Shown here one piece after another: positions 794 to 18,240 of a stretch of 19,108 nt of DNA (the first letter of the stretch is position 1; each line of letters starts with the position of its first letter). The stretch covers positions 1-19,108 of IMG/VR virus record IMGVR_UViG_2534681697_000017; one strand, 5' to 3'. Under the pieces are notes generated by a model. It did not search any database. It was not told the origin of the DNA and worked only from the letters and a program-made list of their open reading frames with translations. Origin of the DNA: a virus. Its lineage: Duplodnaviria > Heunggongvirae > Uroviricota > Caudoviricetes. A program made the position numbers and the translations under genes.

Positions 794-952
794 CTGCGCA
801 ATTGGCATTGTGCGAATTATTCATTCAGTAAAAAAGATTGAGCGTTTTTTCACTGAAGAATAACAGCACAAATAAAACACACGATTAAATAAGAAAACAT
901 GAAAACAATCCGCACTCGCGGAGGTATCCATATATATAAACACGAGGTTAGC

Positions 953-1216
953 ATGCTCAGGACAAATCAAAAAATACTGAAGGATGCATATTTTGACAGG
1001 GGGCGAGATCTCGCAAAGCTTTGCGCCGCACTAAAAGAAATCAGTCAGTATTTCACTGATATTGAAGATGATATAGCTAACAAAGGTGCCAGTATTACAT
1101 TAGCGAACAGAGCACATTTTATGGGCTTTAATGTTTTCACAGCCATAAGAACATTAAAAGAACAAAAAGAAGAAATAGAAAAGCTCAAATACAGACATAA
1201 AGCCAAGAGGGTGTAA
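953..1216 (+). CDS. Hypothetical protein, first gene of a coupled six-gene cassette
   Basis: ORF open from 899; preferred start is ATG 953, preceded by GAGG (944-947) at 5-nt spacing. The stop overlaps the next start (TAATG at 1214-1218). No recognisable family. Confidence 0.4.
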   Translation: MLRTNQKILKDAYFDRGRDLAKLCAALKEISQYFTDIEDDIANKGASITLANRAHFMGFNVFTAIRTLKEQKEEIEKLKYRHKAKRV

Positions 1217-1419
1217 TGGCAATTAAGCATTTTCCTGTCGTTCGTTTCACCTCCAGAGACCGCGAATATGAGGTCGACGAACGACTGATTACCACTATCG
1301 ACAAACATCGTTCGGAAAAGGATGCACACCACATCTACCTCACTGACGGCACTTACTTCTGCGCCACCAACGTGGCGCGGGTGAATCTTATCCGACAGGT
1401 ACAGGAGCCACGTAGATGA
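1216..1419 (+). CDS. Hypothetical protein (67 aa)
   Basis: ATG 1216 preceded by AGAGGG; stop overlaps the next start (ATGA at 1416-1419), indicating translational coupling. Confidence 0.45.
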   Translation: MAIKHFPVVRFTSRDREYEVDERLITTIDKHRSEKDAHHIYLTDGTYFCATNVARVNLIRQVQEPRR

Positions 1420-1682
1420 CCATTCTGGACTACATCGCTACTCATCCGGGTTGTAGCGGCGGAGAGATCGCCGCAGCACTGAATACCCCAACCACAGCCA
1501 TTAATGCTGAGTTACGCCAACTTTGGCGCGGCGGCTTGGTCATCAGAACAAACCGCAGCACAGGTGGTCGCGCTCGCAAAACAGGAGGCCAGGCTTCTTA
1601 CCACGTAAACCCGATGCCATTCGGGTGTGGCAATCCACTTACTCACATGTTTAACCAGCTGCTGAAGGAAGCCAGAGCATGA
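1416..1682 (+). CDS. Hypothetical protein, possible winged-helix DNA-binding protein (88 aa)
   Basis: ATG 1416 with AGGAG upstream. The N-terminal LDYIATHPGCSGGEIAAALN...LRQLWRGGLVIR pattern resembles a winged-helix fold; that assignment is an inference. Confidence 0.45.
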   Translation: MTILDYIATHPGCSGGEIAAALNTPTTAINAELRQLWRGGLVIRTNRSTGGRARKTGGQASYHVNPMPFGCGNPLTHMFNQLLKEARA

Positions 1683-1978
1683 GCGCCATCAACCACCAGA
1701 AGCTACGCGAACTGGCATTTTCCCTGCAACGAATGGCAACGCCTCAAAAATTACTGGCATTTCGCGCAATGCTCTCGTCGTCTGCTGTGCTGGCACTGCT
1801 GGATGACCTGGAGCACGCCAGAACCACGGCTCCTGCCATTCGCCTGACACTCCATCATGAAATCGCTGATTTCTGCGCAACATTGGAGGCGCCAGGCGAA
1901 CCGGAAACGCCGGAAGCAATACAGCAAGAACTGCTGCAACGCATTGACAAGGTTTTCGATTTTTTCCTTAACCAGTAA
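1679..1978 (+). CDS. Hypothetical protein (99 aa)
   Basis: ATG 1679 overlaps the upstream stop (ATGA); GAAGGAAG ribosome-binding site upstream. Confidence 0.45.
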   Translation: MSAINHQKLRELAFSLQRMATPQKLLAFRAMLSSSAVLALLDDLEHARTTAPAIRLTLHHEIADFCATLEAPGEPETPEAIQQELLQRIDKVFDFFLNQ

Positions 1979-1988
1979 GGGCCGCAAC

Positions 1989-2192
1989 ATGAACAACAAG
2001 ACATGGTTTCGCGCATACATGTGGGCGCTGGTATGCGTCCTTGTCTCTCTCATTCTGTATGTAGGGGTACTCCCCCGAATGATTTCATCAGACAGCTCCT
2101 TCCTGGTATTGCTGGGCATTTTCATTGCCATGCTGTACCCGGCAGGCGTTGTTCGCCTTTTCAGTAAGTACATCAAGGAAATCAAACAATGA
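1989..2192 (+). CDS. Small membrane protein, two predicted transmembrane helices (67 aa)
   Basis: ATG 1989 inside the longer listed ORF 1857-2192. Two hydrophobic stretches (WALVCVLVSLILYVGVL and FLVLLGIFIAMLYPAGVV). Stop overlaps the next start (ATGA at 2189-2192). Confidence 0.45.
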   Translation: MNNKTWFRAYMWALVCVLVSLILYVGVLPRMISSDSSFLVLLGIFIAMLYPAGVVRLFSKYIKEIKQ

Positions 2193-2428
2193 AGAAATTC
2201 AAACTCTTTCAGATTCTCCCGCTTTTTGCCGCCATCCTGCTGGTTGGTTGCGATCGCGTTGAGCCAGGTAATGTGGGCATCAAAGTCAACAAGCTGGGCG
2301 ATGACAAAGGCGTTGGCGAAGTGGTTGGCGTTGGCCGCTACTGGACTGGCTGGAATACCGAGGTTTACATCTTCCCGACCTTCAAACAAATGAAGACCTA
2401 CGATGAGCCGTTCAGTGAGGTAGCCTGA
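2189..2428 (+). pseudogene. Lipoprotein with SPFH/band-7-like N-terminus, truncated by IS600 insertion
   Basis: Signal peptide plus lipobox (LLVGC). GNVGIKVNKLGD...YWTGWNTEVYIFPTFKQ resembles the start of SPFH-domain proteins. The last four codons and the stop (2417-2428) are encoded by the IS600 left terminus, so the native 3' end is missing. Confidence 0.5.
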
Positions 2429-2479
2429 GTTTAACGGACACTCCTTCCTGAAATAGAATGGCATCAGAAGGAGCTAATA

Positions 2480-2782
2480 ATGAGCAGAAAAACCCAACGT
2501 TACTCTAAAGAGTTCAAAGCCGAAGCTGTCAGAACGGTTCTTGAAAATCAACTTTCGATCAGTGAAGGCGCTTCCCGATTATCCCTTCCTGAAGGCACTT
2601 TAGGACAATGGGTTACCGCCGCCAGAAAAGGGCTCGGTACTCCTGGTTCCCGCACGGTGGCTGAACTGGAATCTGAAATTCTGCAACTGCGTAAGGCGTT
2701 AAATGAAGCTCGCCTTGAGCGAGATATATTAAAAAAAGCAACAGCGTATTTTGCACAGGAGTCGCTGAAAAATACGCGTTAA
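2480..2782 (+). CDS. IS600 OrfA
   Basis: 100-aa ORF with GGAG upstream; sequence recognised as IS600 OrfA (MSRKTQRYSKEFKAEAVR...). Confidence 0.9.
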   Translation: MSRKTQRYSKEFKAEAVRTVLENQLSISEGASRLSLPEGTLGQWVTAARKGLGTPGSRTVAELESEILQLRKALNEARLERDILKKATAYFAQESLKNTR

Positions 2783-2817
2783 TCGAACAATGGCGACAAC
2801 AATTTCCCATTGAAGCG

Positions 2818-3636
2818 ATGTGTCAGGTATTTGGTGTATCCAGGAGCGGTTATTACAACTGGGTACAGCATGAACCCTCAGACAGAAAACAAAGTGATGA
2901 GCGGCTAAAACTGGAGATTAAGGTGGCACATATCCGCACTCGCGAAACATATGGAACCCGGCGGCTCCAGACGGAGCTGGCAGAGAATGGCATCATCGTT
3001 GGTCGTGACCGACTGGCACGTCTTCGTAAGGAGCTAAGGCTACGCTGTAAGCAGAAACGCAAGTTCAGAGCGACTACGAACCCGAACCACAATCTGCCAG
3101 TTGCGCCAAATCTGCTGAACCAGACGTTCGCTCCTACAGCACCAAATCAGGTCTGGGTGGCGGACCTGACGTATGTTGCCACACAGGAGGGATGGTTGTA
3201 CCTCGCTGGCATCAAAGATGTTTATACGTGCGAAATTGTCGGCTACGCCATGGGAGAGCGCATGACAAAAGAGCTGACAGGTAAAGCCCTGTTTATGGCG
3301 CTCAGGAGCCAGCGCCCACCTGCCGGGCTAATCCACCACTCTGATCGAGGTTCACAGTACTGCGCATACGATTACCGGGTCATACAGGAGCAGTTTGGTC
3401 TGAAAACATCAATGTCGCGTAAAGGTAACTGTTACGACAACGCTCCGATGGAAAGCTTCTGGGGAACGCTGAAAAATGAGAGCCTGAGCCACTATCGTTT
3501 TAATAACCGGGATGAAGCCATCTCAGTAATACGGGAATACATTGAGATTTTCTACAATCGTCAGCGTCGTCACTCTCGTCTGGGGAATATCTCCCCGGCA
3601 GCCTTCAGGGAAAAATATCATCAGATGGCTGCTTAA
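2818..3636 (+). CDS. IS600 OrfB (DDE integrase-type transposase); normally made as an OrfAB fusion by -1 frameshifting
   Basis: 272-aa ORF with an rve-type DDE core (HSDRGSQY...CYDNAPMESFWGTLK). Coordinates are from the first in-frame ATG; the frame is open upstream into the orfA overlap. Confidence 0.9.
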   Translation: MCQVFGVSRSGYYNWVQHEPSDRKQSDERLKLEIKVAHIRTRETYGTRRLQTELAENGIIVGRDRLARLRKELRLRCKQKRKFRATTNPNHNLPVAPNLLNQTFAPTAPNQVWVADLTYVATQEGWLYLAGIKDVYTCEIVGYAMGERMTKELTGKALFMALRSQRPPAGLIHHSDRGSQYCAYDYRVIQEQFGLKTSMSRKGNCYDNAPMESFWGTLKNESLSHYRFNNRDEAISVIREYIEIFYNRQRRHSRLGNISPAAFREKYHQMAA

Positions 3637-3660
3637 AAAAAGAACAAATGGTAGTGTCCG

Positions 3661-3879
3661 CTATTGCCAGTACACCTCAAAATCACGGGTATGTAGAATT
3701 TTCGATGGTTCACCTGAATAAACCTCATCCAGAGCTCTAACGTATTCGAGAGTTTCAGCGTTGGACAACCAGTGATCCAGACGCTTCCCGAAACGTTTTG
3801 CAATATCAGTGGCATTAATCCAGCCATCAGTATTGAAGCGGATAGGTTCGCCTTTGTAATTCAGTGGAACGATATTCAT
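3661..3879 (-). pseudogene. KilA-N-like phage protein (possible antirepressor N-terminal domain), 3'-truncated by IS600
   Basis: The N-terminus MNIVPLNYKGEPIRFNTDGWINATDIAKRFGK resembles KilA-N domains. The ORF runs into the IS600 right end (native sequence only 3680-3879). Confidence 0.45.
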
Positions 3880-4083: not shown

Positions 4084-4551
4084 TTATTTCAGGCACTGAG
4101 TCCTGATGTACTCCTGAAGCATTCTCAATGCTGTCTGGTCGCTGATGATTCCGTCCCGGATACCGAGAACGTTTCGTCCAGCAACTGGAGAGAGTTCGAC
4201 GGTGGCATCATTGCCCATGCCGGAGGCGCTGGAGGTTTCGGCTGAGGATGGCACAGGGCATTTTCCTTTGACGAGCACCCGACCACCATTATCAAGCTTG
4301 CGCCGAAGAGCATCATTTTCAGCTTTCGCATCAGCTAACTCCTTCGTGTATTTAGCATCGAGTGCATCAGCAGCACGCTGGCGCTGCTGCATGTCAGTAA
4401 TGGTTGCGTTCGCCAGCTTCAGTTCTCTTGCGTTTTTGTCGCGCTGCTCTTTGTAGGTAATGGCGTTATCACGGTAATGATTAACAGCCCATGACAGGCG
4501 GACGATGATGCAGATAACCAGAGCGGAGATAATCGCGGTGACTCTGCTCAT
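4084..4551 (-). CDS. Rz: Rz, inner-membrane spanin (i-spanin)
   Basis: N-terminal transmembrane segment then a charged coiled-coil region; sits immediately after the endolysin with the start overlapping its stop; contains an embedded lipoprotein ORF in the +1 frame. Start taken as ATG 4551 (the listed ORF begins at GTG 4563). Confidence 0.8.
4125..4331 (-). CDS. Rz1: Rz1, outer-membrane lipoprotein spanin (o-spanin), embedded in Rz
   Basis: [19 protein letters not shown] lipoprotein signal followed by a proline-rich segment ([11 protein letters not shown]), entirely inside Rz in another frame: the classic Rz/Rz1 arrangement. Confidence 0.7.
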
Positions 4552-5021
4552 TGCTGCCCCCACAAACAGACTTCACGCTCAATCTCACGACGGGTCATCA
4601 GCCCTTTCCATTGCTTACCGCCAGCATATGTCCAGCGACGTAGCTGGTCACATGCGCCTTTGATATCGCCCTGGTTTATTTTGCGAAGAAGCGTCGATGT
4701 TCTGAAATTGCCAGCGCCCACGTTGTAAACGAACGAGTAAAGAGCGCCGCGCGTTGTTTCCGGTATATCGACTTTGATGTACGGGTTAATTTGTCTGGCG
4801 ACAGTGGCAAGGTCTTTATTCAGGAGAGCTTTGCATTCTGCTTCGGTATACGTTTTACCAGGCATGATGTCTTTTCCGGTGTGTCCGTGACATACAGTCC
4901 ATACACCAATGATATCTTTGTATGGTATGTAGCTGACACCTTCCAGACCATCGTTACCACCTGGGCCAGTGATTAACACAGATGCTATAGCAAACAGCCC
5001 CGCCACCAATAGCAACTGCAA
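4548..5021 (-). CDS. R: Phage lysozyme (P21 R-like SAR endolysin); N-terminus disrupted by a frameshift, listed ORF starts at a TTG
   Basis: [15 protein letters not shown]...[15 protein letters not shown] matches P21-type endolysin as recalled. The expected ATG (5046-5044, overlapping the S stop as TAATG) opens a different frame that stops after 30 codons ([30 protein letters not shown]). See findings. Confidence 0.7.
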
Positions 5022-5045
5022 CAGCCTTGCGTAATGATGGCGACA

Positions 5046-5261
5046 TTATTCACCTCTCGCAGCCTTACGCTTATCTTCTCTTATTTTGAAATACAGATTC
5101 GTCAGATAAGTCAGAAGCCCCAGAAGCAGACTTCCCAGCACACCAATCGCAGCCCACTGTGATGGACTGACCTGATCCAACCACTGCAAAAACCAGTAGC
5201 CGGCACTGCCGGCGGAGGTGCCGTAGGCAATGCCCGTTGAAATTTTATCCATGGATTTCAT
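5046..5261 (-). CDS. S: Class II holin, P21 S-like pinholin with dual-start motif
   Basis: [71 protein letters not shown] is near-identical to S21 as I recall it; Met1-Lys-Ser-Met4 dual start; strong GGAGGTGAGG ribosome-binding site upstream. Confidence 0.85.
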
Positions 5262-5580: not shown

Positions 5581-5812
5581 TTACCTAATCTAGCCAGTAT
5601 GTCGACCCTAAATATTATCGACGACCGGGGAAATCAGGATTTCAATTTCACTGCTCAGTTCGCTTTTGCTCCGAGCATATGCAAAAAATACCACTTTCAT
5701 TTCTCGGAAGCAACGCATTTACAAAATTATTTCAGTTCAGGCCGCTATTAATGGAAATTCTTTATCCAATTCTCGTTTCATTGCATAAAACATTTCTGAC
5801 TCCAGCACTTTC

Positions 5813-6263
5813 TCACACCACTCGCTTACGACAATACTGAATATCAGCACCTGTTATATAAGAAATAATCCTGGCTATATCTTGCGTGCAATTGCGATTG
5901 CAATATCGCTTAATAGCTACATCGCGGACAGGGCTTTCACGGTGAAACGTCTTAACCATGTCCGGCATCCCACTGAGCAGACGTGAGCGTTCCGCACGAG
6001 ATACATGGTAAATAGCGATCACGCTCCCTGATATAAGCATTTACTGCCTGCTGTGCCTGCTTCAGCCAGTAACTGCGGGGTTTTAAATCGCGGCGTCTTG
6101 CTTTCAGCTTGTCTGCCTGTTCTTTTGCTGAGGCTATAGCCTTTTCTTTTCTGACCAGTTCCAGTGCACACTGACCACAACAAACTTTCTGATATGAGCG
6201 GAACGGCACAAACTGATTGCCACACACTTTGCAGTTTTTGGGTTTACGCTGTTTCATTATCAC
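5813..6263 (-). pseudogene. ninG: ninG (rap)-like recombination protein gene, disrupted
   Basis: The first 103 codons (5952-6263) match lambda NinG as recalled ([43 protein letters not shown]) and then hit a stop; the downstream sequence continues only in another frame. Confidence 0.6.
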
Positions 6264-9183: not shown

Positions 9184-9563
9184 GACGCCCCCTTGCTACG
9201 TGATTTACCCGTTGCCGGGATCACGTCGATCTCATCGCTAACGTATTGATCCGGATTACGTGAACAGCGCAGAAGCACGATACCAGGAATGCCGTATAGC
9301 TTGAGTCTGCGCAGTTTCAGTATTGAACGTGCCCGTGGTGACGCTCTGTCCACCTCGATCGCGCACCGTTCACCAGATGGGGCAACGACCATGATATCGA
9401 CGAATCCGCGCTTACCGTTGCCCATATCAACCAGATAATTACGTTCGATCGCCAGTCCGGCATCACGCAATTTGGCAGCCAGCACATAATCAAACGTGAC
9501 CTTGTCTTTTCCGGTGTAGAATTTGTTTCCGAGCAGGCTGATAACCACATGTTTGATGAACAT
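9177..9563 (-). CDS. Hypothetical protein, possibly nuclease-fold (VRR-NUC/PD-(D/E)xK-like), coupled to the helicase
   Basis: 128-aa ORF whose stop overlaps the helicase start. The GFVDIMVV...AIEVD segment loosely resembles a PD-(D/E)xK core; weak inference. Confidence 0.45.
   Translation of the reverse strand: MFIKHVVISLLGNKFYTGKDKVTFDYVLAAKLRDAGLAIERNYLVDMGNGKRGFVDIMVVAPSGERCAIEVDRASPRARSILKLRRLKLYGIPGIVLLRCSRNPDQYVSDEIDVIPATGKSRSKGASC

Positions 9564-17357: not shown

Positions 17358-18240
<883 letters not shown>

Follow-up and report, generated by a model that had tools for sequence, protein, structure and literature searches.

The lysis cassette of phage 21 is the closest described counterpart of the locus analysed here. 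It encodes the pinholin S21, the endolysin R21 and the spanins Rz and Rz1. R21 is a signal-anchor-release (SAR) endolysin, and its structure is deposited both as the full-length chain (PDB 3HDE) and as a 140-residue chain (PDB 3HDF). In SAR segments, basic residues at the N-terminus precede a membrane span that is weakly hydrophobic and rich in Gly and Ala, and the motif E-X8-D-X5-T has been described for lysozymes of this type (PMC9239132). In R21, the SAR segment is the signal for export and tethering and contributes to the refolding by which the enzyme becomes active (reviewed in PMC6116005). RrrD (PDB 4ZPU), encoded by DLP12, a defective prophage in E. coli K-12, is a member of this family, and many prophage genes in E. 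coli and Shigella share its annotation name, lysozyme RrrD. These copies are intact, whereas the copy described below is frameshifted.

The window, by which we mean the whole stretch of DNA analysed (19,108 nucleotides), is contig AERN01000035.1 of assembly GCA_000193915.2, which is entered as Shigella boydii ATCC 9905 in a published strain table (PMC6397287). Its lysis region reads on the minus strand and has the layout of the phage 21 cassette: a dual-start class II holin gene (S) that overlaps the endolysin gene (R), followed by Rz with Rz1 embedded in it. Both cassettes have S and R overlapping as TAATG and the same ribosome binding site, and the phage 21 R gene is 94% identical to the window copy at the nucleotide level. 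The two cassettes differ in that the C-terminal half of Rz and Rz1 belong to another allele in the window, and in that the window R gene has a 1-nt insertion after codon 18 and does not encode the full-length protein. We consider it highly probable that the locus represents a recent, strain-private pseudogenisation of a SAR endolysin gene of the phage 21/DLP12 type (R21, RrrD) in a defective prophage of Shigella boydii ATCC 9905.

The endolysin gene and its two frames

The holin gene (5046–5261, minus strand) is intact and encodes a 71-aa class II holin (pinholin) of the phage 21 S type (PF04971, E = 1e-35) with the dual-start motif MKSM. The protein is identical to the copy from an intact cassette at 70 of 71 residues and to phage 21 S at 67 of 71. 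The holin stop codon TAA (5048–5046, minus strand) overlaps an ATG (5046–5044) as TAATG, and the coordinates confirmed the original prediction that this ATG opens a dead-end frame of 30 codons. The resulting 5′ piece of the endolysin gene (4954–5046, minus strand) comprises 18 authentic codons and 12 that are out of frame, and ends at TAA 4956–4954; the 30-residue peptide it encodes is accordingly authentic over its first 18 residues. The 3′ piece (4548–5021, minus strand; PF00959, E = 8e-46) lies in the +1 frame, which is open from TTG 5021. It is authentic from AIASVLITG onward and contains the second half of the SAR segment and the whole GH24 lysozyme domain.

The window was first aligned with its counterparts in two E. 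coli prophages and in phage 21, and later with further copies. At 4992–4994 (minus strand) the window has a TTT run where the intact alleles have TT. Intact alleles read GCT GTT GCT (Ala17-Val18-Ala19) and the window GCT GTT T GCT, so that GGG GCT GTT GCT ATA GCA of the intact genes (with ATT for GTT in phage 21) becomes GGG GCT GTT TGC TAT AGC. Over the whole gene (499 nt in the window vs 498 nt), the alignment with nine intact copies from different genomes contains one gap and no mismatches. A 1-nt insertion had been predicted at this site relative to an ancestor encoding GGGAIAIA. The insertion is borne out by the alignment, but the ancestor is not: the closest intact allele encodes GGGAVAIA, and GGGAIAIA is the sequence of phage 21 itself. 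In phage 21 R and the related intact genes of E. coli and Shigella, translation starts at the holin-overlapping ATG and continues in a single frame; none of them starts at the TTG or GTG.

When the extra T is removed, the gene encodes a 165-aa protein. A public protein collection lists the identical protein, named lysozyme RrrD, for at least 449 contigs, and because the repaired open reading frame matches it residue for residue, a chance match is out of the question. The repaired protein also matches the phage 21 lysozyme 3HDE (E = 4e-107) and RrrD 4ZPU (E about 1e-107), each over all 165 residues, and the 140-residue chain 3HDF aligns to its residues 27–165. Both the family model, which the +1-frame piece matches, and the matches of the repaired protein to solved structures place the enzyme in PF00959 (GH24, R21/RrrD subfamily). 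The catalytic motif E-X8-D-X5-T is present in the +1 frame within a 17-residue stretch, as E35, D44 and T50 in the numbering of the repaired protein.

The insertion divides the endolysin between codons 18 and 19, within the codons of the SAR membrane segment, as had been suspected when the segment was first described as compromised. The ATG frame retains the basic residues together with the first half of the SAR segment, and the second half and the enzyme fall in the +1 frame. In a SAR endolysin, two or three basic residues, the Gly/Ala-rich segment and the enzyme are contiguous in one frame, as they were in the ancestral gene; in the window they are not. GAGGT, which in phage 21 is annotated as the ribosome binding site of R, is unchanged, as is the coupled ATG, and therefore any translation would yield the 30-residue peptide. 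According to the reading that we prefer, the addition of one T to a TT run in the middle of the N-terminal SAR segment would direct ribosomes that start at the holin-coupled ATG into this dead end, and would leave the lysozyme domain in the +1 frame without a proper start signal. Normal export, tethering and activation of the endolysin are likely lost, and with them, presumably, its function in lysis.

With the extra T, the holin and lysozyme frames coincide (5021–5048, minus strand) and are separated only by the holin TAA. Readthrough of this codon would give a holin-lysozyme fusion; such a product is hypothetical only, and there is no sign that it occurs.

Authenticity and distribution of the insertion

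The same frameshifted endolysin gene is present in the complete 5.16-Mb chromosome CP026875.1 (assembly GCA_002950355.1), which comes from the same strain as ATCC 9905 or from a relative and was assembled separately from the window. Over 12.6 kb, CP026875.1 and the window differ by one substitution and by four one-base length differences in runs of G or C (window positions 9191, 10572, 11249 and 11469), with CP026875.1 one base shorter at every one. Three of the four sites could be compared with an E. coli outgroup, which sided with the window at all three. These length differences, together with the agreement of the outgroup with the window, indicate that the two sequences were built separately. 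The differences in the G/C runs are probably consensus errors in CP026875.1. One of them leaves the CP026875.1 helicase gene in pieces of 454 and 175 aa, compared with 506 and 128 aa in the window.

Because the separately sequenced CP026875.1 carries the same T, the insertion is very probably genuine rather than a read error; this second assembly does not restore the frame. That the T arose in sequencing or assembly, and that the organism itself has an intact gene, is in our judgement very unlikely. Such an error would fit with the confinement of the allele to one lineage, with the draft status of the window contig and with the visible homopolymer errors elsewhere in CP026875.1, and an artefact common to both assemblies keeps a small probability. 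However, TTT is agreed upon by two separately built assemblies, the errors of CP026875.1 are one-base deletions in G/C runs rather than insertions in T runs, the draft sides with the outgroup at all three homopolymer sites open to comparison, and a run that grows from two to three bases is short for a homopolymer miscall. An exact 21-mer scan also returned one IMG/VR contig with the extra T and the same prophage layout as CP026875.1. As this match may derive from the CP026875.1 assembly, it was left out of the independent support.

A 65-mer spanning the frameshift had no exact match in 5426 complete E. coli genomes, and the best matches all showed the one-base gap. Likewise, neither a frameshifted 39-mer nor, subsequently, a 21-mer had an exact match in the GTDB species-representative genomes. 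From these searches, we conclude that the mutation is real and private to the Shigella boydii ATCC 9905/CP026875.1 lineage. It is also recent, because the rest of the gene is unchanged.

Other lesions were found in the same endolysin gene in Shigella/E. coli assemblies. ADUP01000038.1 has a 1-nt deletion (GGTGGCG to GGTGCG, at about 1363 in the extracted locus) 10 nt upstream of the position of the window insertion, in the same SAR-coding stretch, and CP026831.1 has an IS3-family element (193–1430 in the extracted locus) within the 5′ third of R. These lesions, which are independent and lie at different positions, show that loss of the gene recurs; they do not mark the site of the window insertion as special.

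Residual expression of the lysozyme frame

The catalytic domain lies, as predicted, in a different frame from the ATG, but its possible starts are not limited to TTG 5021 and GTG 5006, as had been proposed: TTG 5015, TTG 5009 and an internal ATG at codon 61 are also available. Gene callers disagree on this point: one assembly has a 155-aa model from TTG 5015, the other a 105-aa model from the internal ATG. The best Shine-Dalgarno-like match is AAGG, 9 nt upstream of TTG 5015.

A truncated endolysin could in principle be made from TTG 5021, TTG 5015 or GTG 5006 and still work, with its Leu-rich N-terminus (M, or MQ, followed by 17 residues) acting as a membrane anchor. The +1 frame is open from 5021, a gene caller selected TTG 5015, which has AAGG at 9 nt, and the first 17–19 residues are by accident hydrophobic, with a mean Kyte-Doolittle value of 2.1–2.4 vs 2.1 for the native segment. 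Nonetheless, we regard this as highly improbable. The start codons are weak, with at best a 4-base Shine-Dalgarno match, and they sit inside a stretch that is translated from the strong, coupled ATG. Proteins started there would lack Arg6 and Lys7, basic residues of the kind that precede SAR segments (PMC9239132). A Leu-rich stretch would take the place of half of the Gly/Ala-rich segment. Small, weakly hydrophobic residues then make up about 0.4 of the segment instead of 0.60, and a lower content of such residues should hinder SAR release, as known from SAR domains. Moreover, none of the intact relatives compared uses these starts, and the late operon is without its antiterminator. Under the preferred reading of pseudogenisation, the weak TTG and GTG codons would give at most traces of an N-terminally altered protein.

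Alternatively, programmed or leaky +1 ribosomal frameshifting at GUU-U could restore the full-length wild-type protein. On sequence alone, a slip at GUU U GCU gives exactly that protein, and the G-rich, Shine-Dalgarno-like GGCGGGG 2 nt upstream loosely resembles the prfB site. After the slip, however, the Val tRNA would face UUU with a mismatch at the first position, and UGC, the codon that follows, is an ordinary Cys codon, not a stop and not known to be hungry. The G-rich stretch is nothing more than the Gly-Gly-Gly-Ala codons, which every intact allele has; the frameshifted allele, being confined to one lineage, shows no conservation that would point to selection, and the surrounding prophage is defective. 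The site thus departs from programmed +1 sites of the prfB type in its poor re-pairing and in the UGC that follows, and the arrangement is present in none of the relatives compared. We give this reading almost no chance of being correct.

A weaker version of both ideas is that the extra T, beside the G-rich Gly codons, has accidentally produced a site at which a small fraction of ribosomes slip +1 at GUU-U and make wild-type endolysin, or that the Leu-rich, TTG-started variant acts as a permanently tethered lysozyme. This seems extremely unlikely. If it were true, a "dead" gene would still supply the cell with muralytic activity at a low, non-lethal level.

Decay of the surrounding prophage

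The other genes of the cassette are open. Rz encodes a 155-aa i-spanin (4084–4551, minus strand; PF03245), and the o-spanin gene Rz1 inside it (4125–4331, minus strand) is identical to the copy in an intact cassette. The open holin, Rz and Rz1 show that the cassette is only slightly decayed at the sequence level, which counts against our preferred explanation of pseudogenisation. At Rz codon 18 (4498–4500, minus strand), in the membrane segment near the N-terminus (IIVRLSW), the window has Arg in place of the Cys of phage 21 and two intact relatives, a missense change that may be damaging. The tRNA genes that lie upstream of the holin in phage 21 and some relatives were sought, and none is present in the window. 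A promoter and terminator scan of the window gave counts near the shuffled expectation and was set aside.

Upstream of the holin, the intact Q gene that controls the late operon in phage 21-type cassettes is missing. In E. coli CE10, an intact 204-aa Q-like homologue (phrog_753, "anti-termination protein Q-like", E = 2e-67) directly precedes the holin. In the window, only codons 130–204 of 204 remain (75 codons; 5740–5959, minus strand), and the reading frame is broken again between codons 177 and 178. This remnant is joined directly to a ninG gene truncated to 103 codons (5952–6263, minus strand), compared with 187 aa in an intact relative, in which ninG is followed by ninH and then Q. A deletion joins the truncated ninG to the 3′ end of the Q gene. 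By analogy with lambdoid biology, the late operon would not be read through without Q.

Downstream of Rz, an IS600 element of the IS3 family (2413–3680, plus strand; orfA 2480–2782, orfB 2818–3636) is inserted in a KilA-N/Rha-type gene, which it cuts after 72 codons (3879–3661); the gene product is 198 aa in intact cassettes. A second piece of IS600 lies at 289–796, and IS3/IS2 sequences occupy the right end of the contig (about 17120–19108). Between the IS600 copies, window positions 797–2412 match an unrelated E. coli segment that encodes hypothetical proteins, a MarR family regulator and an SPFH domain protein. Here the arrangement of the draft contig departs from that of the complete genome: in CP026875.1, the portal gene follows IS600. 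In that chromosome, the portal and large terminase genes are inverted between two IS600 copies, and genes of the ipaH type (NEL and LRR_TTSS domains) come next. These genes, at 17925–19687 of the extracted locus and outside the window, adjoin the prophage remnant, as fits a Shigella chromosome.

Judged by these lesions, the prophage is a defective lambdoid one that was already crippled by insertion sequences and deletions. The original prediction considered the frameshift by itself; with Q lost and a neighbouring gene cut by IS600, the frameshift becomes one further step of decay and not an isolated oddity. It would be neutral, because the late operon was already without its antiterminator and the virion genes were disrupted.

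Prophage decay driven by insertion sequences and point mutations is typical of Shigella genomes. The locus is a case of ordinary gene decay, which is already known biology, and it does not depart from the familiar erosion of Shigella prophages; its importance beyond annotation is small. Genes of this kind receive inconsistent, truncated models from gene callers, and the locus should be annotated as a frameshifted pseudogene of an rrrD/R21-type endolysin and not as a "lysozyme" of 155 or 105 aa. An intact pinholin and spanins alongside a broken endolysin also make the cassette a natural "R-minus" allele, which is mildly useful.
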